From the IMG/VR virus record IMGVR_UViG_3300021963_003887, positions 1-64,000 of that record: a DNA stretch of 64,000 nt; one strand, written 5' to 3'. How positions within the stretch are numbered: position 1 is the stretch's first letter; the number at the start of each line of letters is the position of its first letter. Source of the DNA: a virus. Taxonomy: Duplodnaviria > Caudoviricetes. Shown here piece after piece: positions 9,631-38,200 of this stretch. Position numbers and translations under genes: made by a program. The notes beneath the pieces were generated by a model. It was not told where the DNA came from. It ran no database searches and saw nothing but the letters and a program-made list of their open reading frames with translations.

Positions 9631-10038
9631 TTAGATAGCGGTTAGTTGGATATAATCGCTAGTTGAATCGTTAACTAAAATCCAAGTATAACGGTTATTA
9701 CTAAAATCTGTAGCTACACGTTTTGTGATCTTAGCGATCGGAGTTGGGGCAGCAGCGTTACCACCGATGTATCCGTTTAATCTCATTTCGCCATTGCTAT
9801 CTGGAATAGCAGACTGTAGTACGCATGGACCAAGATTATCGCCGTCTTGATTCTTTAGCGTAAATGTTTTTGCTCCGCGTTGCTTATAGATATAAGCATA
9901 ATTTGTTGAAGCATTGTAAGTAGCATCAGTATAAGCTGTGCCGCCTGCATAGGCTTCAACTCTTACACCGGTGTTAGTAGTTGCTGGGGTACCGATGGCA
10001 TCTGTGCCAAGTACATCTTTTCTTAATGGACGTCCCAT
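9631..10038 (-). CDS. Probable virion structural (head-associated) protein
   Basis: 135 aa, strong SD (AAGGAG), its own late promoter, near gp23. Confidence 0.65.
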   Translation of the reverse strand: MGRPLRKDVLGTDAIGTPATTNTGVRVEAYAGGTAYTDATYNASTNYAYIYKQRGAKTFTLKNQDGDNLGPCVLQSAIPDSNGEMRLNGYIGGNAAAPTPIAKITKRVATDFSNNRYTWILVNDSTSDYIQLTAI

Positions 10039-10051
10039 TTGTTTCTCCTTA

Positions 10052-10119
10052 ATTTGACGTTCTAGGTCTACGCTGCGGGTTACAGCATAAGTTACTCTGT
10101 GAGTACGCTCTAGATACTT
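10052..10119 (-). promoter_or_regulatory. Structured 5' leader, three-way junction (candidate cis-regulatory RNA)
   Basis: P1 TCTAG/CTAGA (10061-65/10110-14) encloses P2 TACTC/GAGTA (10093-97/10101-05) and P3 (10069-75/10083-89, one G-U pair in the mRNA). Confidence 0.55.
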
Positions 10120-22081: not shown

Positions 22082-22089
22082 TATAAATA
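22082..22089 (+). promoter_or_regulatory. Late promoter TATAAATA (rightward)
   Basis: Exact T4 late consensus, 31 nt before the ATG at 22121. Confidence 0.8.
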
Positions 22090-22101: not shown

Positions 22102-22109
22102 TATTTATA
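22102..22109 (-). promoter_or_regulatory. Late promoter TATAAATA (leftward)
   Basis: Exact consensus on the minus strand, pointing to the tape-measure/portal operon. Confidence 0.8.
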
Positions 22110-23046: not shown

Positions 23047-23223
23047 CTTGATGAACAGGCAAAGCAGATCAAACTAGAAGCTATGCGTTCAGTTTGGTAT
23101 ATGCGTGGCGGATTGTCGTTTGCCGAAGCCATGAACCTCAGTTGGGACGAAAGAGAGTTAGTCCTTGAGATTGTCAAGGACAACATGGATATTACTAAGA
23201 GTTCTGGACTACCGTTCTTTTAA
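22990..23223 (+). CDS. gp51-like small assembly ORF, probably the -1 frameshift extension of 22121..23014 (alternative ATG at 23083)
   Basis: Not in the ORF track. Reads FRQRLSTLSIPEVLAESKALDEQAKQIKLEAMRSVWYMRGGLSFAEAMNLSWDERELVLEIVKDNMDITKSSGLPFF*. The S..E..NL...ER pattern resembles gp51/gpT-type domains. Confidence 0.7.
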   Translation, partial: FRQRLSTLSIPEVLAESKALDEQAKQIKLEAMRSVWYMRGGLSFAEAMNLSWDERELVLEIVKDNMDITKSSGLPFF

Positions 23224-24272
23224 CCAGCACGTACAGCTTTTAATAACTGAAGTGCCTTAGCAGTCTGAGCAGGATCCATCTTAACCAATTCTCCAAAAGC
23301 ATTAGACATCACATTCATTTGCTCTCTAGTTAATGGATTCCCAGCCATATAGCTAGTAACCGATTTTCTTAATTGATTAGCATCAATACCTGGAAGTAAT
23401 TCTGATAGTTTACCGTAGTTAAGACTGCCCTTGGTTTTAGTTGGCTCCTCGCCACCAGACATGCCCTGTTTAACTCCGCGAATGAATGATGATCCTATAC
23501 CGCTGCTACCATCATCATCACCGGCATCGCCGCCTGCTTTACTAATATCTTGGGCCGAAGCACCTTGACCACCGATAACCGCATCAAGTTGTTGTCCCAT
23601 TTTGGCTTTAAGGATATCAGTAACTGCTGCTTTGATAATACTATCTACAGTTGAATTCTTAAGTTCTACTTCGTCAATGATTGTTTCACTAACTGGGTTA
23701 TATCGTAATCCCGCTAATTGAGCGATGCGTGACAATTCACCAATTCCCTCAGCTGGTTTTTTCTTTTTTTCTTTAGGAGGAACTTCACTTGCTGCCGGTG
23801 CCTCTGGTTCAGCTGGAGTTTCTGGAGCAGCAGAATCAGCCGGTGCCTCAGGACTGCCAGGCTCAGCTGGAGTTTCTGGGGCAGCGTCGCTGTCCGGACC
23901 AGGAGGTACCTCTATAGTACCAGTGGGCTCAATTTTATCCGCTCCAAGTTCTTTGGCAATATCTCCGGTTGCTGCCCCACCTGACGCCATAGCTGCTTGT
24001 TTTAATGCTGCTTCAGCTCCTGCAGTAGGAAAACCATTTGATTTTAAAAAGGCAATTAACGCATCTGAATTAGGCTTTTGATCTGTTTGACCTAGATAAA
24101 AGTCAAATTGTTTTCTAAGACCGTTGGCGTATTTGGCCATGTCAAGAGCACCTTTAGCAGTACTACTTCCAAACTTAGAAGCAATACCTAGACCAGCCCT
24201 TTTTAACATACCTACAGGTGCTTCAGATACCTGTTGTTGTTGTTTTTGAGATAATATATCAGTGATTTTCAT
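23220..24272 (-). CDS. Hypothetical late protein, probable internal head protein with a Pro/Ala/Glu linker
   Basis: 350 aa with its own TATAAATA promoter; the RIAQLAGL motif resembles the gp22 C-terminus. Confidence 0.7.
   Translation of the reverse strand: MKITDILSQKQQQQVSEAPVGMLKRAGLGIASKFGSSTAKGALDMAKYANGLRKQFDFYLGQTDQKPNSDALIAFLKSNGFPTAGAEAALKQAAMASGGAATGDIAKELGADKIEPTGTIEVPPGPDSDAAPETPAEPGSPEAPADSAAPETPAEPEAPAASEVPPKEKKKKPAEGIGELSRIAQLAGLRYNPVSETIIDEVELKNSTVDSIIKAAVTDILKAKMGQQLDAVIGGQGASAQDISKAGGDAGDDDGSSGIGSSFIRGVKQGMSGGEEPTKTKGSLNYGKLSELLPGIDANQLRKSVTSYMAGNPLTREQMNVMSNAFGELVKMDPAQTAKALQLLKAVRAG
23794..23885. repeat. Coding direct repeat (AAPETPAEP x2)
   Basis: TCAGCTGGAGTTTCTGG at 23809 and 23863; GCCGGTGCCTC at 23794 and 23839. 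Confidence 0.8.
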
Positions 24273-24300
24273 TTAAAAGTGTCCTAAGAACTTATAGAGT

Positions 24301-24308
24301 TATTTATA
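24301..24308 (-). promoter_or_regulatory. Late promoter TATAAATA
   Basis: Exact consensus, 28 nt upstream of the ATG at 24272. Confidence 0.8.
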
Positions 24309-24315
24309 TGTTTAG

Positions 24316-24779
24316 GAGTGAGCGATGCTCACTCGTGTCTATCGCTAACGCTCAGACACATTTTTTTTAGAGTTAACTGCGAAGCAGTTTTAACTATTAT
24401 CCAGATTGTTTCAGTCAGACGGAACCTATCTACATGGTTCCGTCTTTGCTTGGGCATTATCCGAGTTGCAACAGCCAAGACATTGGAAGTAGGTGTTTTT
24501 ACCGTATGCTAATGGGCTCTGACCTTTCCCAACCTACGTCGACTCGCTTAATTTTAAGCGTCTTAGACCTCGTTCCTAGTGTCTAAGTTTTTATAGCACG
24601 GTTTTTCGTATGCTAACAATCATACTATAGCAATGCGTCGGGCATATGGTTCGAACCCTCTGACTCACTTCCGATTTTTCAGGATACTGGAATTCCTCCA
24701 GGGGAGTGCCTTACTATGTTTCGTGTGCCGTTTCTTACGCGGCCCTTTCACAGCGGTATTACAAACTGGCCCGCCAACC
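24316..24779 (-). ncRNA. Large structured non-coding element (candidate ncRNA; alternatively a DNA origin-type element)
   Basis: The only gene-free stretch over 150 bp in 64 kb. It holds at least 9 inverted repeats, long-range complementarity and internal direct repeats. Strand is inferred from the flanking operon. Confidence 0.6.
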
Positions 24780-25040
24780 TTAAGTGTTAGATGAAATGTA
24801 GCCTTTTGGTAACCAAGTAATAAATTTGCCTCCGCAACTATTACAGATTACTTTGCCTGCGTGTGGACCTGTCGGTTTATTGATGATTTCCCAATGATGA
24901 TCTTTGTGAACGCCTAAATGATCTTGTAGTTTTGCCCGCTGACTATGCCATTTTTGATCAAAACCTTGCTTTGGATTACGATAATAATCTGAATTTAACA
25001 CACTATTAACGGGGTTTCTATTCCAGTTTAGCTTGGTCAT
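24780..25040 (-). CDS. Small His/Cys-rich protein, putative zinc-binding
   Basis: 86 aa; HKDHHW...GPHAGKVICNSCGGKFITW. Confidence 0.65.
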   Translation of the reverse strand: MTKLNWNRNPVNSVLNSDYYRNPKQGFDQKWHSQRAKLQDHLGVHKDHHWEIINKPTGPHAGKVICNSCGGKFITWLPKGYISSNT

Positions 25041-25056
25041 TATTAAAAAATGGTTC

Positions 25057-25491
25057 TTATTTTGCCTTTTTATGTTCTTCTAGACGCTGTCTAAGTATGT
25101 TTGATCCGCCAACTCTGACGTTTATAATGCCATTATAATAGTCATCTGTTTCTAAAACTCTGCGTTCAAACTGCTCTCTAGCCTCTAGATATGACATTTC
25201 TGCCTTGGATTTACAGTAGTAAAGTATTTCTCTAGTGAAGTTTTCCGGACCTAATGCTTGGACGTCTGCGTTGAGCCTATCAGAAGAACCAAAGTAGTCA
25301 CGCCAATCGCTTTCTACTACTGATCTTCTTTTAAGTTTTTTGCCTTTAAGGGGTGGTTTAGTACGTTTGAATTGAGCTAATTTCTTGCCTATGTACTTCT
25401 GTCCGGTTTTGAGATTCGTGATGAGATAAACAAAGCCAATATAGCCTTCGGGAATTTCTTCTACGGGTTGATTTTGGTATGTCCACAGCAC
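25057..25491 (-). CDS. GIY-YIG endonuclease, catalytic domain only
   Basis: GFVYLITN...KYIGKK, YFGSS, FTREIL, YLEAREQ (catalytic Glu), YYNG; 144 aa; GTG start. Confidence 0.88.
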   Translation of the reverse strand: MLWTYQNQPVEEIPEGYIGFVYLITNLKTGQKYIGKKLAQFKRTKPPLKGKKLKRRSVVESDWRDYFGSSDRLNADVQALGPENFTREILYYCKSKAEMSYLEAREQFERRVLETDDYYNGIINVRVGGSNILRQRLEEHKKAK

Positions 25492-25722
25492 TCACTTAGT
25501 TATTTTTGGGGGTCTGCCTAACATGCCTTTTCTGGCTGCTTTACGTTGTTGCCTTTTTTCTTGTATTTCTACACGCCTAACACTTGCCTCGTTGCGTATT
25601 TCTGATAGCCAATATCTTGCCTTTATTCCTGCCTCGTCAGATCCTTTGTACTCAAAGCGGTCCTGCCACTTAAAGTACTCTTGGAATGCCTTGATCATAC
25701 GATCGTGAGCATCTGTGCTCAA
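25492..25722 (-). CDS. Small basic helical protein, resembling Hc1-like DNA-binding proteins
   Basis: 76 aa; EAGIKAR.WLSEI...A..RR.EIQ with a K/R-rich tail ending GRPPK. Confidence 0.5.
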   Translation of the reverse strand: MSTDAHDRMIKAFQEYFKWQDRFEYKGSDEAGIKARYWLSEIRNEASVRRVEIQEKRQQRKAARKGMLGRPPKITK

Positions 25723-27497
25723 GCTACGATCTCCACATCATTCGAATAACTGGTAAAACCGTTTTCTTTTATTACTTTTAGCACATGATTCACCCTGCTG
25801 GTTAGGTCGTCTCTATGCGATATTAAGAACACATTCTTATTGCGTTCACGTGTCATGCGTTTCAATACTGCGATAGAACTCTCAACACCGCTAGAATCCA
25901 TGCCGCTGTCTACTAATTCGTCAATGAACAACAGATTAATTGGCTGATATAGGTTTTCCCACACATCACGGAATGCCCAACTTAGACTTAATATCAGTCT
26001 ATTACGCTCTCCACGGCTCAAGTTATCAAAATCTAGGTCTTGTCCTAGCTGTGTAATGATCACTGATAGGTCGTTTTGGAATTCTACTATGTGTGGCAAG
26101 CCGATCTTGTCCAGATAATAAGTTAACCGCTGATTCAAGAACGCTAGATTTTGATCAATAATACGTTTGCGTACAAAACTGTCTTTGTTAGTCAACAATT
26201 TGTATAGAAACTCTTGATGATCCTTGAGTTTTGTTAACTCATTAACTGCTTCCCAGTCTATTTCTTGTACTGCGGTATTTTTTAAATCATCAATCTGTTC
26301 AGCATACGGATTGGTTTCTGCTTCTTTGATAGTGATATCTTTTTCTAAACCAGATAATGTGTTTTTATGATTTAGAGCTTCTTCGAGATTATCATAACTT
26401 ACCTGCGGACAAGCATTAAGTTCGCCTAGTAACACCAGTGCTTCTCTAAGGGTATCTAACTCTTTTTGGTGTTCATTAACAGAATTAGCACTATCTTCTA
26501 ATTGTTTGGTTTTAGTAGACACCATACTTTCATGTTTTTCGTCATGTAAGTCTTGTCCACAGCTATGACATTTATGATCGGCTAATAGACTTAATTCTTT
26601 TTCTAGTTTGTCTAGTGTTTTTTGTTCTTTTTCAAAAGTAGTAACCTGTTTTGCGATCATCGCAGTTAGATTATCGTGTTCTTTTTTGTTTTTGTTCCAC
26701 TCTATCAGAGCACGTTGGTTAATAATTTCCTGATCGATATCAATAGTACCTAATATATCGATACTTTTTCTAAGGTTCTCTAAAGCCTTTTCTTTTTGAT
26801 CTTCCCAGAGTTTTTGTTTACGTTCTAAACTTTCAATACTTTGTTGTATTTTTTCGTTAGAGATCTTAATAGTCTCTATCCTTGTGTTTTCTGTAGCAAT
26901 AGCATCTTTAGTCTGCTTGACTTGTTCTTTGAGATTTTCTGCTTTCTCGCTGAGCAGCGTGATACCTAAGAGCTGCTCAATAATTGATCGTTGATCAGCA
27001 GCCTTCATTGATAAGAATGGCTCGGTGTAGGTATTCAAAGCCACAAGGTGTTTGAACATTTCGTGCGTCATTCCAAACATTTCTTCGATGGCTTTTTGTG
27101 TCTCTCTAGAATCGCCTTGACTTTCGTCTAGATCATCTAGCTCTTGTTCTTGGCCGTTGACACTAAACTTTAATAAGTTAGGCTTACGTCCGCGTTCGAT
27201 ATGATACTCGATACCGTCTTTTTCGAAAGTCACGGTGGCTAACATTCCCTTGCCGTTGATTTTATTAACAAGGTTGTCTTTCTTAATATTGGTCAAAGCA
27301 TTGCCGTAGATAGCATAGCTCAGTCCGTTGATGATTGTAGTTTTACCAGTGCCGTTACGAGCACCGCTGTCATCACCACCTAGGTCTAAATTTTCACCTA
27401 ACACCAAAGTTAATTGCCCGCGGTCAAAATCAATAGCTTGGGTTTGATTCCCCACACTCATAAAATTTTTAACAGTAAGATTTTTTATTTTAATCAT
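25719..27497 (-). CDS. gp46: Recombination nuclease ATPase subunit (gp46/Rad50/SbcC)
   Basis: KNFMSVGN, Walker A NGTGKTT, zinc hook CHSCGQ, signature LSRGE, Walker B LLFIDE, ISH. Confidence 0.95.
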   Translation of the reverse strand: MIKIKNLTVKNFMSVGNQTQAIDFDRGQLTLVLGENLDLGGDDSGARNGTGKTTIINGLSYAIYGNALTNIKKDNLVNKINGKGMLATVTFEKDGIEYHIERGRKPNLLKFSVNGQEQELDDLDESQGDSRETQKAIEEMFGMTHEMFKHLVALNTYTEPFLSMKAADQRSIIEQLLGITLLSEKAENLKEQVKQTKDAIATENTRIETIKISNEKIQQSIESLERKQKLWEDQKEKALENLRKSIDILGTIDIDQEIINQRALIEWNKNKKEHDNLTAMIAKQVTTFEKEQKTLDKLEKELSLLADHKCHSCGQDLHDEKHESMVSTKTKQLEDSANSVNEHQKELDTLREALVLLGELNACPQVSYDNLEEALNHKNTLSGLEKDITIKEAETNPYAEQIDDLKNTAVQEIDWEAVNELTKLKDHQEFLYKLLTNKDSFVRKRIIDQNLAFLNQRLTYYLDKIGLPHIVEFQNDLSVIITQLGQDLDFDNLSRGERNRLILSLSWAFRDVWENLYQPINLLFIDELVDSGMDSSGVESSIAVLKRMTRERNKNVFLISHRDDLTSRVNHVLKVIKENGFTSYSNDVEIVA

Positions 27498-28504
27498 AAG
27501 TCTCTGTAAATGTCCAACAATAATTTTTTGTCGTAGGAATCGCTTTCGATAGCATCGATCTGATTCATTACGATAGTATCAACAGATTCAAAATTAACGT
27601 CTATGGCCACAGCATTGCTTTCTACCTCTACTTTTTCGGGTATAAGCATAAGTTCTCTAAGATTATACTGAGGTATAAACTGTTCTTTGATAAAGTTAGC
27701 CTCTTCAAATGTGATAGGTAGATCTATAGTGACTCTACAGTGCATTTTTTCTTTAAGCAAAGAATCCGGGCTATCTATAATTTGGCTCAACTTGTAGGTT
27801 CTAAATGTAGGCTGATTAGGCCAAACACGATATTCGGGCTTGCTGCCCCATTCTAACATCATCATGCCTCTATCGTCATCACCGGCATCGGCATAATTAT
27901 GCGGAAAGGCATTACCAATGTAAGTGATGTTCCTGCTGGTTTGACGCTTATGGAAGTGTCCAGAGAATACATATTCTTGATTTACAAAATGTGTGCTCTG
28001 TAGTTGTCCATGGTCAGGCATCTGTACCATAGCATTCATGTAGAAATTTGGAAGCTCGAGGTGTCCAAAAATATAACGACTCTTGATCTTAGGAACCCGT
28101 TGCCATTCGTCGCCCACTAGCCACGGTAGAATAGTAACATCGCCTTCGGTAAATGGATCTCTAATGGGTACTACATTAGGAAACAATCTCATAAACTCTA
28201 TAGAGTTAATTTCACGTTTGTCTTTATAAAATAGATCGTGGTTTCCTAGAATAAAATATACTTTTTCAAAGTTTTGACTTAGTCGTTCTAGATTCGAAAC
28301 GGTATAGTTCATGGTACTAACATCAGTGGTCGCACGATTGTGATGCCAGTCGCCTAAAAATATAGCAGTTTCGCAACCTTCGTCCTTGGCAGTGTCGCAA
28401 AACCATTTGACAAATCCTTCACAATCGGCGTTATGCGTTCGACTGCCCGATTTTAATCCAAAATGTATATCTGTAAAACACGCTGCTTTTTTGAATAGAC
28501 TCAT
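27494..28504 (-). CDS. gp47: Recombination nuclease subunit (gp47/Mre11/SbcD)
   Basis: Phosphoesterase motifs DIHFG, LGDWHH, GNHD, GHLE, SGHFH. Confidence 0.95.
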   Translation of the reverse strand: MSLFKKAACFTDIHFGLKSGSRTHNADCEGFVKWFCDTAKDEGCETAIFLGDWHHNRATTDVSTMNYTVSNLERLSQNFEKVYFILGNHDLFYKDKREINSIEFMRLFPNVVPIRDPFTEGDVTILPWLVGDEWQRVPKIKSRYIFGHLELPNFYMNAMVQMPDHGQLQSTHFVNQEYVFSGHFHKRQTSRNITYIGNAFPHNYADAGDDDRGMMMLEWGSKPEYRVWPNQPTFRTYKLSQIIDSPDSLLKEKMHCRVTIDLPITFEEANFIKEQFIPQYNLRELMLIPEKVEVESNAVAIDVNFESVDTIVMNQIDAIESDSYDKKLLLDIYRDL

Positions 28505-35287: not shown

Positions 35288-38200
35288 ATGACTACAACTA
35301 CTAGACAAAATAACTTAATTTTAGCTGAAGACTGGACTAGAATTTATCAAACTTTCCGTAATGCGGATTTTCAAAGTTATGATTTTGAAAATCTTCGCAG
35401 GGTAATGATTAACTATATCAAAGAAAATTATCCAGAAGATTTCAACGATTTTATAGAAAGTTCTGAATACGTGGCATTAATAGATCTGATAGCTTTTCTA
35501 GGGCAGAGTCTAGCATTTAGGATCGACTTAAACAGTAGAGAAAATTTCATTGAACTAGCTGATAGAAAAGAAAGTGTATTGCGTCTAGCTAGAATGCTGT
35601 CTTATAATGCTAGGAGAAACAAATCTGCTTCAGGGTTGTTGAAATTTGAATCTGTTTCAACAACAGAAGGACTAGTCGACAGCAATGGAACAAACCTATC
35701 TAATCAAATTATTGTATGGAATGATCCAGCAAACTCTAATTGGTATGAACAATTTATATCAATTTTAAACGCTGCTATGATACCAAACGTTGAGTTTGGA
35801 AAAGAACAATCAAATAAAATTATAGACGGAATTAGGACAGAGCAGTATAGACTCAATTCTTTTAGTACCGGGTTGCCAATATTTTCTTTCAGCAAATCTG
35901 TAGCCGGCAGATCTATGGGGTTTGAATTAGTTAGTACAGGACTAGCTGAGTCTAGAGATTTTATATTTGAAGAAGCACCAGTTCCGAGCCGACAAGTGGG
36001 ATTTATTTATAGACAAGACGGTAAAGGCACAGCAAGTAATAATACTGGATTCTTTATGATGTTTAAACAAGGAACATTAGAAAGTGCAGATTTTAGTATA
36101 TCTCGCCCAACCCCAAATGAAATAGTTTCTATCACTACCCAAAATATTAATAATGATGATGTATGGTTATATTCTATTGATGGTTCAAGTAATATTACAA
36201 ATGTCTGGACAGAAGTTTCATCAGTTGCCGGAAACAACATTGTTTTTAATAGTTTAAGTAATAATCAAAGAAATGTATATTCAGTAATTACACAGGCCAA
36301 CGATGCTGTAGATTTACAATTCTCAGATGGTGCGTATGGAAAATTGCCTCAAGGAACTTTTAGATTTTATTATAGAGTAAGCAACGGTCAAAGTTATGTT
36401 GTAAATCCTTCAGAAATGAAGGCAATCACTATATCAGTTCCTTACATTAATAAACGAGGAACCCAACACAGCTTATCGATAACTTTAAGTTTAGAATATA
36501 CTGTCGACAATGCGTCATCGTCAGAAACTATAGATTCTATTAGATCTAAAGCCCCTGCTGTGTACTACACTCAAAATAGGATGATTACTGGAGAAGATTA
36601 TAATATTGCTCCATTATCAAGTTCGCAAGAAGTAATAAAAGTCAAAGCTATCAATAGAACTAGCAGCGGCATTAGCAGAAATTTTGACATCATTGATGCT
36701 TCTGGAAAATATTCTAAAATAAACATTTTTGCCGATGACGGATTAATTTATAGAAAAGATGAAGAAAGATATTATTCTTTCAAATATACTAATTCTGCTA
36801 CAGTTTTAAATTTTATACGAAATATAGTTCAGCCTGCTTTAAGCTCTTTTCAGACATATAATTTTTATCTTACAAATTTTGATAAAATTTTTACAGCCGA
36901 CGTGAATGTTAAGTGGATTAAATCTACCACAGAGGAAAACGCATCGACTGGATATTTTGGAAACGTATTTGATTCATTTCCTATTAAAATCGGATCTTAT
37001 ACAAGCAGTAATTTAAAATATATAGAGCTAGGAAGCCTTATTAAATTTATTCCTCCTTCAGCAGACAAAGCATTTTATAACGGAGAAATAGTTAATTATG
37101 ATCCTTCAAATGCTAACCATAAGAAATTTATATGGACTAAAGTTGTTAAATTAATAGGCGACGGAACCAATGCCGGAAAGGGAAATCTAAGCTCAGGTAA
37201 AGGGCCTATAACCTACAGTGAAAATATTCCTACAGGATCTTTGCCTAGTCAGGTAGTATCTAAATTTGTAACGACATTGCCGACAGATATTGAAAATGAA
37301 ATTTTAAATCTAACATTTAGTTCCGAAACATTTGGTTTAAGATATGATGTATTAGATGGTATGTGGAAAGTAATAAGCTCTACAAACATTGATTTAGAAA
37401 ATGATTTTAATTTAGGACAAGCTGGTAATACTAGCAACGAAGCTGTTGATACATCGTGGATTGTAGCATTTGTCTATGACGGCGACGAATATAGGGTTAG
37501 AGTAAGAGGCACGGAATATATTTTTTCTAGTATTCTGCAAAATAGATTTTATTTTGACAGGGGAGAAAAAGTATACGATAGTCGTGCTAGAACTGTAATT
37601 AAAGACCAAGTTAAAGTATTGGCTATTAATACTTCGCCTTTAAGTTCTGTATTAAGCAATACAGAAATAGCCAACGCAATAGTAAATTTAAGACAGGTAA
37701 ATCCTCTATTTTCCGTATCAGAAGTATTGGCAATAGTAGATAGACAGCAAACACTAAAAGATGATATATCTTTTGAGATAGCCGATTCTGTGAGATTTCA
37801 AGACGGGTACAAGAGCTCCGATTCTGTTAAAATATCATTTTATGATAGCGACAACGACGGAGTTATAGACAATCCTGATTCATTTGATGAAATAGTAGGA
37901 TCTAATATCAATAACAAATATGTGTTTTTCCAACAAGTTCAAGATGAAAACGGATTCGATATCTTTAATTATATTCCAAATGTTAACAACAAGTTTATTA
38001 TTATAGACAAAGAAGTTAACGCTAACGTTAATGATTACGAACATAATCAATTAATTTATTTTTATGATAGGGCTGAAAATTTAATTAAAAAAGTTGATCT
38101 TATAACTCGTTCTTTTGTTCTAGAACCTAGTTATGTAGGATATATTGGTAGGGATAACTTAAAATTTCAATACATTCATAATGCCAGTGAAAATAGAAGA

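Follow-up and report, generated by a model that had tools for sequence, protein, structure and literature searches.

What fills the 507-nt gap (24273-24779) between an 86-aa open reading frame (ORF; 24780-25040, minus strand) and a 350-aa ORF (23220-24272, minus strand) in the virus record IMGVR_UViG_3300021963_003887? The window analysed here, positions 1 to 64,000 of that record, is part of a 79-kb viral record from a T4-like phage, and the original prediction, made from the letters of the window, placed a densely structured non-coding element at 24316-24779. Comparison with homologues indicates that this element is almost certainly a real structured RNA gene, as predicted, but with limits that shift to 24317-24790 and with the minus strand of the window as the strand that encodes it. 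The gene is ~475 nt long as conserved across homologues: an nhmmer match covers 24785-24319 (E 2.7e-127), and a strand of the first helix takes the 5' end to at least 24790, which falls within the final three codons of the 86-aa ORF. The promoter and leader of the next gene occupy 24273-24316 and lie outside the RNA. As an overall model, we lean slightly towards a stable, trans-acting, highly structured non-coding RNA gene of a family not yet catalogued.

The first homologues came through the 86-aa protein: viral contigs encode 12 proteins related to it, and in every one of these loci the sequence that follows the gene matches the window's gap at 74-79% identity. An invariant 19-letter stretch taken from the alignment of these 12 loci served as search motif and occurs in at least 119 viral contigs. 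With an nhmmer profile, a full or end-truncated copy of the RNA scores above 100 bits in 109 of the 119 motif loci listed, as it does in all 12 loci reached via the 86-aa protein and in the window itself. Complete copies number 102 among the matches listed, and 73 of them are distinct, with 64-81% identity to the window. The family is present in more than 100 phage contigs of aquatic metagenomes and is carried by aquatic T4-like and jumbo myoviruses. Searching bacterial and archaeal genomes with the same motif yielded no real homologue among 120 stretches listed, just six matches of 16-20 bits around the motif.

Compared with dinucleotide shuffles, the gap folds with a z-score of -3.16 on the minus and -4.59 on the plus strand, and none of 100 shuffles does as well on either strand. 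Better-than-shuffled folding alone is weak evidence, and the comparison of homologues is decisive. In a 73-sequence alignment, the top column pairs by mutual information are Watson-Crick pairs, with up to four pair types each. The covariation set consists of the 53 sequences left after filtering at 93% identity, in a tool-made MAFFT alignment (A3). Standard pairs fill 96.5% of 4803 cells, against 84.9% with partners shuffled and 33-39% with them slid by 1-3 columns; both sides have changed in 57 of 93 pairs, and none of 500 shuffles equals the observed value on any of five measures. This shows a conserved RNA with a predicted fold of ~18 helices, in which three or more pairings are pseudoknotted. 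At many pairs, G-U or U-G is frequent or even the most common type (e.g. columns 21:44, 92:176, 93:175, 455:480 and 456:479), which places selection on the minus-strand transcript. A decayed or unrecognised protein-coding gene, a reading to which small ORFs of 49-64 aa in the gap might lend themselves, is refuted by the same homologues: they conserve no reading frame, only 0-12 of 52 keep a given one of the four small ORFs of the window uninterrupted, and length differs by a non-multiple of three in 33-40 of the 52. The dense structure and the non-coding nature claimed at the outset are both borne out, and the checks proposed with the claim, a search for homologues and for covariation, turned up the former in viral contigs by nhmmer and found the latter present.

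What does the RNA look like? Read along the minus strand, as are all helices below, it would start with a 5' domain (24606-24790) of helices P0 to P7 and an invariant UAUCCUGAAAAAU(N)GGAAG, with 97-100% of cells paired in helices 1-6, 8 and 9. P0 (24790-85/24618-13) is a predicted pseudoknot of the RNA 5' end, CUAACA, with the loop of P7; four of its six pairs have changed on both sides, and variants include CUGACA/UGUCAG and CAGCA/UGCUG. Two-sided changes also affect three of six pairs in P1 (24776-71/24756-51), all four in P2 (24743-40/24730-27), three of seven in P3 (24717-11/24633-27), one of four in P4 (24707-04/24666-63), all five in P5 (24701-697/24691-87), two of four in P6 (24658-55/24643-40) and three of five in P7 (24625-21/24612-08). 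P6 is dispensable, being missing in 5 of 53 sequences, and the T-loop-like GUUCGAACC that the first reading had picked out sits in the loop of this variable hairpin and is not conserved.

A pseudoknot domain follows (24485-24601), made up of P8 to P12 and PKa (helices 10-15). P8 (24601-594/24511-02) is crossed by P11 (24537-33/24493-89); the domain further has P9 (24587-81/24568-62), P10 (24560-55/24550-45), which is variable in length and takes large insertions, and P12 (24531-28/24516-13). PKa (24540-38/24523-21) is a further crossing pairing, paired in 100% of cells and changed on both sides in all three pairs; its pair types are GAC/GUC and, in other sequences, GUG/CAC or GAU/AUC. P8 displaces a local stem that had been proposed at 24594-24615: positions 24594-24601 pair instead with 24502-24511, and P8 is the more stable in 53 of 53 sequences (median -12.4 versus -4.6 kcal/mol). 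A proposed long-range pairing of GGAAGT with ACTTCC can form in 100% of cells but shows no two-sided change, three of its four pairs being invariant and one alternating between G-C and G-U; it competes with a UCC/GGA hairpin.

In the 3' part lies P13, a 10-bp hairpin (24417-24445) between two repeats, R1 and R2. P13 is paired in 98.3% of cells, the 3' half, GGUUCCGUCUGAC, is nearly invariant, and variation is through G-U only, which sets the strand. A kink-turn at its base was considered and ruled out, as 11 of 53 sequences have G at the sheared-A position (columns 455:480). Further 3' lie P14 (24371-24395), a small hairpin around a conserved GCUUCGC, and two terminal hairpins, T1 (24335-24359), with the conserved loop GAGCG-NN-AGCGA, and T2 (24317-24333). 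All five pairs of T1 and all seven of T2 have changed on both sides; for T1, 60.6% of cells are paired in a region where A3 is poor. P14 had been listed among the original stems and, judged by eye and uncounted, is present in part of the family, not family-wide. Its GCUUCGC (24378-24386) is complementary to GAGCG..AGCGA of the T1 loop (24343-24354), and UCGCUUCGCUC, in the common variant, could match each of its two halves; an alternative or a tertiary pairing might form here, on which covariation cannot decide because both sides are conserved.

Nine of the 11 local stems first drawn in the gap coincide with helices kept across homologues: 24316-34 (T2), 24335-59 (T1), 24417-45 (P13), 24489-94/24532-37 (P11), 24545-60 (P10), 24562-87 (P9), 24687-701 (P5), 24727-43 (P2) and 24753-74 (P1). 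The idea of a large multi-domain RNA is supported in turn, as conserved and covarying. The strand, the pseudoknots, the link to a homing endonuclease, a sister class with a known motif and the twin co-varying repeats are new to the present analysis.

What do the closest relatives carry at this locus? In eight of them, whose 350-aa protein is 65-97% identical, the 86-aa gene is absent and a 488-nt gap stands in place. The window and one such relative (L003) are 91.7% identical from the gp47/gp46 genes to the stop of a GIY-YIG nuclease gene (25057) and 91.3% identical from 24420 onwards; between these blocks lie 636 nt in the window and 341 nt in L003 that are unrelated. There, L003 carries Polynucleobacter-1 (RF01718; 58.4 bits versus a gathering score of 37). 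A motif of the Polynucleobacter-1 class occurs in at least 120 further viral contigs, and the 3' part of the window-type hidden Markov model matches 67 of the 120 Polynucleobacter-1-type loci listed, ~200 nt downstream and on the same strand. These alignments show a modular RNA, whose ~330-nt 5' head is exchanged in sister phages for a Polynucleobacter-1 head. Both heads are joined to one homologous 3' module, consisting of R1, hairpin, R2, small hairpin, T1 and T2. Such a clean cassette swap next to the gene of a homing endonuclease illustrates one way for phages to trade RNA genes.

The shared module contains the pair of direct repeats, ~26 nt each, that flank P13 and have a 7-mer at the end of each. 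In the window, R1 (24456-24481) reads GUCUUGGCUGUUGCAACUC plus the 7-mer GGAUAAU (24462-24456), and R2 (24396-24420) reads GUCUGACUGAAACAAUCU plus the same 7-mer (24402-24396), both on the minus strand. The two 7-mers are identical within an RNA in 51 of 53 window-type RNAs, across seven variants (ACAUGAA 32, ACAUAAA 7, GCAUAAU 4, ACAUAAU 4, ACAGAAA 2, GGAUAAU 1, GCAUGAA 1), the two exceptions being off by one base, and in 84 of 89 Polynucleobacter-1-type RNAs, across ten variants. Positions just 5' of the 7-mers likewise change in parallel, and column pairs between R1 and R2 are among the highest in mutual information, yet they are not complementary. No complement of the 7-mers in cis occurs at a consistent place from -400 to +600, nor among the top mutual-information pairs. 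GGAUAAU is found in the window alone among the 53 window-type RNAs, and also in the sister phages (L001-L008) and in 17 of 89 Polynucleobacter-1-type RNAs. The window thus has the same variant as its sister phages even though the swapped cassette includes R1, and the variant hence goes with the genome and not with the head.

These patterns fit a scheme in which the pseudoknotted head would fold into a compact body, while single-stranded R1 and R2 would each dock one copy of the same partner, which is encoded by the host or at another place in the phage genome. Judging from the parallel variation, we regard the chances that the twin repeats are docking sites for such a trans partner as evenly balanced. 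Of possible partners, we would prefer a nucleic acid recognised by base pairing over a dimeric protein, since so many variants are easier for a nucleic acid to track; that the partner is a nucleic acid nonetheless stays a tentative and rather doubtful choice. Pairing of the 7-mers with a tRNA anticodon loop was ruled out by reasoning: the frequent G at position 2 needs a pyrimidine at tRNA position 37, and in another register R1 and R2 would give different codons. Two sense-strand copies of ATTATCCAGA, the complement of the R2 7-mer plus three bases, are found at 35427 (plus) and 2685 (minus), inside structural genes of 1170 and 1898 aa, and may be due to chance. Whatever the partner, twin repeats that change in step over ~16 variants are a concrete handle for finding it.

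How is the RNA transcribed? By upstream content, the loci fall into classes with the order GIY-YIG gene, 86-aa ORF, RNA; GIY-YIG gene, RNA; RNA, GIY-YIG gene; or the RNA alone. TAAATA, the core of the T4 late promoter TATAAATA, stands 50-85 nt upstream of the RNA in 22 of the 26 distinct loci where no gene adjoins it, versus 0 of 57 where one does, and two loci additionally have TTGACA-N17-TATAAT. Between the late-promoter-like motif and the RNA runs a leader of ~75 nt. The leader region (-95 to -1; e.g. loci L022, L027, L046, L061) contains 3-6 repeats of (A/U)GGCA(A/U) at 10-16-nt spacing; their mean is ~3-3.7 per 95 nt in loci with the RNA alone or with GIY-YIG downstream versus ~1 in the other classes, and loci in which the endonuclease cassette abuts the RNA all lack this repeat leader. 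At the other end, T2 is followed by at least four T within 8 nt in 23 of 49 homologues and by a single T in the window; it is terminator-like in about half of the homologues and weakly so in the window copy. The late-promoter motif of the next gene is often 3' of T2. In the window this motif is TATAAATA at 24301-24308 (minus), a match to the T4-type late promoter consensus that belongs to the 350-aa gene and lies outside the RNA. Genes downstream differ between loci and are often on the opposite strand, which makes the RNA a gene of its own and not a leader or trailer. Taken together, the loci without an abutting gene show a putative transcription unit of the RNA's own, with late-promoter-like TAAATA, leader, core and end hairpin. 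In the window, a cassette of GIY-YIG and 86-aa genes takes the place of promoter and leader.

The first gene of this cassette (25057-25491, minus) encodes a 144-aa SegE-like protein with a GIY-YIG catalytic domain, which matches PF19835 over 1-123 of 123 profile positions (8.6e-37) and phrog_447 (7.7e-40). Its match to TIGR01453 is restricted to the N-terminal half (positions 2-104 of 215); ~20 residues extend beyond the nuclease domain, and no DNA-binding domain is recognisable. Among 91 distinct loci, the GIY-YIG gene adjoins the RNA in 63 and the 86-aa gene in 40, with gp46 upstream in 42. The position of the GIY-YIG gene varies: it is upstream, upstream with the 86-aa gene between, downstream, or absent. 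Its closest cultured relative, 64.7% identical, is found in Methylophilales phage Melnitz, where it adjoins ribonucleotide-reductase genes and no gap is large enough for such an RNA. A gene that changes position, comes and goes among relatives and also turns up elsewhere is what one would expect of a free-standing homing endonuclease beside a conserved gene, and going by these contexts the GIY-YIG gene is probably such a selfish neighbour. The endonuclease would use the conserved RNA gene as a landing site and promote the exchange of RNA cassettes between phages. The 86-aa ORF is an optional member of the cassette, and its end overlaps the P0 strand. Its product matches none of the families in Pfam, PHROGs or NCBIfam. 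Variation at third codon positions and a pattern H..H...CxxC...W.PK, seen in the window and in L009-L020, mark it as a real conserved protein, and its last codons (S/P-N-T) are fixed by the P0 strand of the RNA.

Several observations weigh against a free-standing, trans-acting RNA gene with a selfish neighbour. No promoter motif lies directly in front of the RNA in the window, and T2 has no U tract there, nor does a terminator scan find any terminator on the minus strand at this place. With these two features lacking and TATAAATA belonging to the 350-aa gene, the RNA of the window would be made by read-through and processing. Even with two mismatches allowed, the 64-kb window has no other copy of the repeat unit that could mark a trans partner, and the 7-mer is over-represented on neither strand (9 matches versus 11.8 expected). 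Cultured phages, 50,697 records searched by blastn with the 507-nt gap and with the sister 488-nt RNA, gave no match, nor did nhmmer on the regions from gp46 to the baseplate hub of PA5oct and Atu_ph07. Metatranscriptome contigs of 362 nt (~83% identity over 24567-24871) and 189 nt (over 24309-24410) overlap the gene, yet they are weak hints, covering it in part and giving neither ends nor strand, and DNA is possible in such libraries. Finally, with the nuclease gene unusually often adjacent (63 of 91 loci) and its product lacking a DNA-binding domain, a functional link between RNA and nuclease stands as a rival.

One form of that link would join the RNA to the small GIY-YIG protein, and perhaps to the 86-aa protein as well, in a single unit in which, for example, the RNA gives the nuclease its target specificity with the 7-mers as guides. 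The nuclease gene adjoins the RNA on the same strand and beside both RNA classes, the protein is hardly more than a nuclease domain, and the repeats vary as guide segments would. The RNA, however, has its own promoter and no nuclease in at least 20 distinct loci, the closest cultured relative of the nuclease has other neighbours and no such RNA beside it, inspection by eye shows no 7-mer complement near insertion sites, and two identical guides leave no obvious double-stranded target; we therefore consider a joint unit improbable. A related idea, a programmable and modular recognition RNA, would have an exchangeable head and a 3' module with two identical, single-stranded 12-14-nt segments that pair with two copies of a nucleic-acid target, are re-matched in each phage genome and bridge or mark two identical sites, possibly with the GIY-YIG nuclease. 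This is a long shot, although if true it would amount to a novel type of RNA-guided homing or recombination system. Catalysis by the RNA, as a self-cleaving or other ribozyme, is unlikely too. In its favour, multiple pseudoknots and the invariant unpaired stretches UAUCCUGAAAAAU, AGGAACGAGG, GUCAGAG and GGUUCCGUCUGAC could provide an active site, and the 5' end must arise by processing wherever a gene abuts. Against it, no ribozyme model of Rfam 15 matches, and a splicing role conflicts with the lack of exons, the RNA's own promoter and its variable flanks.

Could the RNA instead be part of a messenger? Its place in the window, immediately after the 86-aa ORF and ahead of the 350-aa gene, is what one would expect of a cis-acting untranslated region that stabilises the upstream mRNA at its 3' end or, as a leader, controls the downstream gene. 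Across loci, however, the genes on either side vary, the one downstream often has the opposite orientation, the RNA itself has a promoter in 22 of the 26 loci where it stands free, and the 350-aa gene has its own TATAAATA beyond T2, which together bring this reading close to refutation and leave it very little probability. A site acting at the level of DNA, such as a replication origin or a packaging or recombination site, would account for two direct repeats ~60 bp apart that evolve in parallel, as protein-binding sites, and for a position at a module border beside a DNA endonuclease gene. The helices tolerate G-U but not the mirror-image A-C, which means selection on one strand only, and the two-sided changes counted above include long-range and pseudoknot pairs, which would not arise in DNA; a DNA site is scarcely credible. 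The trans-acting RNA gene is what we retain.

Upstream of the GIY-YIG gene on the minus strand lie a 76-aa ORF (25492-25722), an SbcC-like gp46 (25719-27497) and an SbcD-like gp47 (27494-28504); the 350-aa ORF follows on the far side, with baseplate-hub genes beyond. By gp46, the nearest cultured phages are jumbo myoviruses, namely PA5oct (49.6% identity), then Atu_ph07 and Phosso. The stretch from gp46 to the baseplate hub of PA5oct (L261, 9000-10530) has several tiny annotated ORFs (38-50 aa) and a ~660-nt unannotated gap; an Rfam scan of this region found nothing relevant, and the gap, without nhmmer or Rfam match, could hide an unrelated RNA. TATAAATA has four copies in the 64 kb, rarer than the 10.95 expected from shuffles, and three of the four are directly ahead of genes; two stand back to back at 22082-22089 (plus) and 22102-22109 (minus), between a divergent 861-aa gene and the baseplate-hub gene.

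How does this RNA compare with those already known? Rfam 15 comprises 4227 models, including GOLLD, ROOL, HEARO, RNase P, tmRNA, group I/II introns and the known ribozymes. At gathering scores it reports in the whole window only freshwater-2 (RF02980) at 10036-10106 (minus; 50.5 bits versus 49.9, E 1e-4), a second known orphan RNA motif in this phage. On 24100-25000 at E<=10 only sR6 (20.1 bits versus 60) and snoU13 (13.6 versus 46) appear, and on 12 homologous loci at E<=1 nothing falls inside the RNA. ARAGORN finds 0 tRNA or tmRNA genes in the window. The original prediction had likewise seen no tRNA, tmRNA, RNase P or group I/II core and had proposed a scan against Rfam; as no family matches, the RNA is not an already described Rfam family. 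A C/D-box RNA was dismissed, its sole support being the sub-threshold sR6 match, and so was a group I intron harbouring the GIY-YIG gene, given that no Rfam model matches, that the flanks vary from locus to locus and that the RNA carries a promoter of its own.

In T4, free-standing homing endonucleases such as the seg genes sit beside conserved genes, and the GIY-YIG enzyme I-TevI is encoded inside the td group I intron. The present locus resembles the seg-type arrangement in that a SegE-like GIY-YIG gene lies beside a conserved gene, is present or absent in relatives, and comes with replaced flanking sequence. It differs from I-TevI and td in that the RNA is no group I intron (no Rfam match, no exons, own promoter), and from both T4 examples in that the nuclease has no recognisable DNA-binding domain. 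HEARO or omega-RNA and other nuclease-associated guide RNAs offer a further comparison. Like them, the RNA is structured, adjoins a nuclease gene and carries short variable segments; unlike them, it has no Rfam match, its neighbour is a GIY-YIG domain of 142-144 aa and not IscB or TnpB, it also occurs alone, and its two variable segments are identical to each other.

GOLLD and ROOL, to which the original prediction likened the element in scale, match it neither in sequence nor in structure in Rfam 15; at ~475 nt, the RNA is, going by published sizes, smaller than both yet of the same size class. Common to all three is that they are large, intricate and without assigned function; GOLLD and ROOL (PMC12286853) are often phage-associated and are reported to form multimers, and GOLLD is partly lake-derived. 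Fremin et al. (2023, PMC10690425) predicted 10,006 unnamed candidate structured RNAs (csRNAs) from viral sequences. Literature searches yielded no description of the RNA, although an unnamed listing among the PMC10690425 candidates is possible. Unless it stands unnamed in this csRNA catalogue, the RNA very probably represents a new family.

Its nearest named relative is Polynucleobacter-1, a motif that Weinberg et al. (2010, PMC2864571) list as Burkholderiales, fresh water/estuary. The likeness is one of place and of module: Polynucleobacter-1 occupies the identical locus in sister phages and has, in phage contigs, the same 3' module with twin co-varying repeats; by eye, both heads also have ACUAUCCU followed by a short hairpin, with a similar hairpin order. 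The difference lies in the heads, which are not alignable, nhmmer aligning the 3' module alone between the classes, and RF01718 misses the window RNA even at E<=10 and the 12 homologues at E<=1. The Rfam model, 141 nt long, also ends before the 3' module. In phage contigs (L003:2513-3000 and L263-L382), Polynucleobacter-1 appears as the first 141 nt of a ~480-nt conserved RNA, in which the head is followed by a conserved middle (e.g. GAGGUACCGG..ACCGCCUC) and then by the common 3' module. An orphan Rfam motif is thus recast as what appears to be the head of a larger RNA that shares its 3' module with the RNA described here. Large, intricately folded RNAs without assigned function are rare, and earlier examples pointed to new biochemistry. 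The RNA at 24317-24790 belongs with these large orphan structured phage RNAs, and is unusual among them for its modular heads, its twin co-varying repeats and its link to a homing endonuclease.

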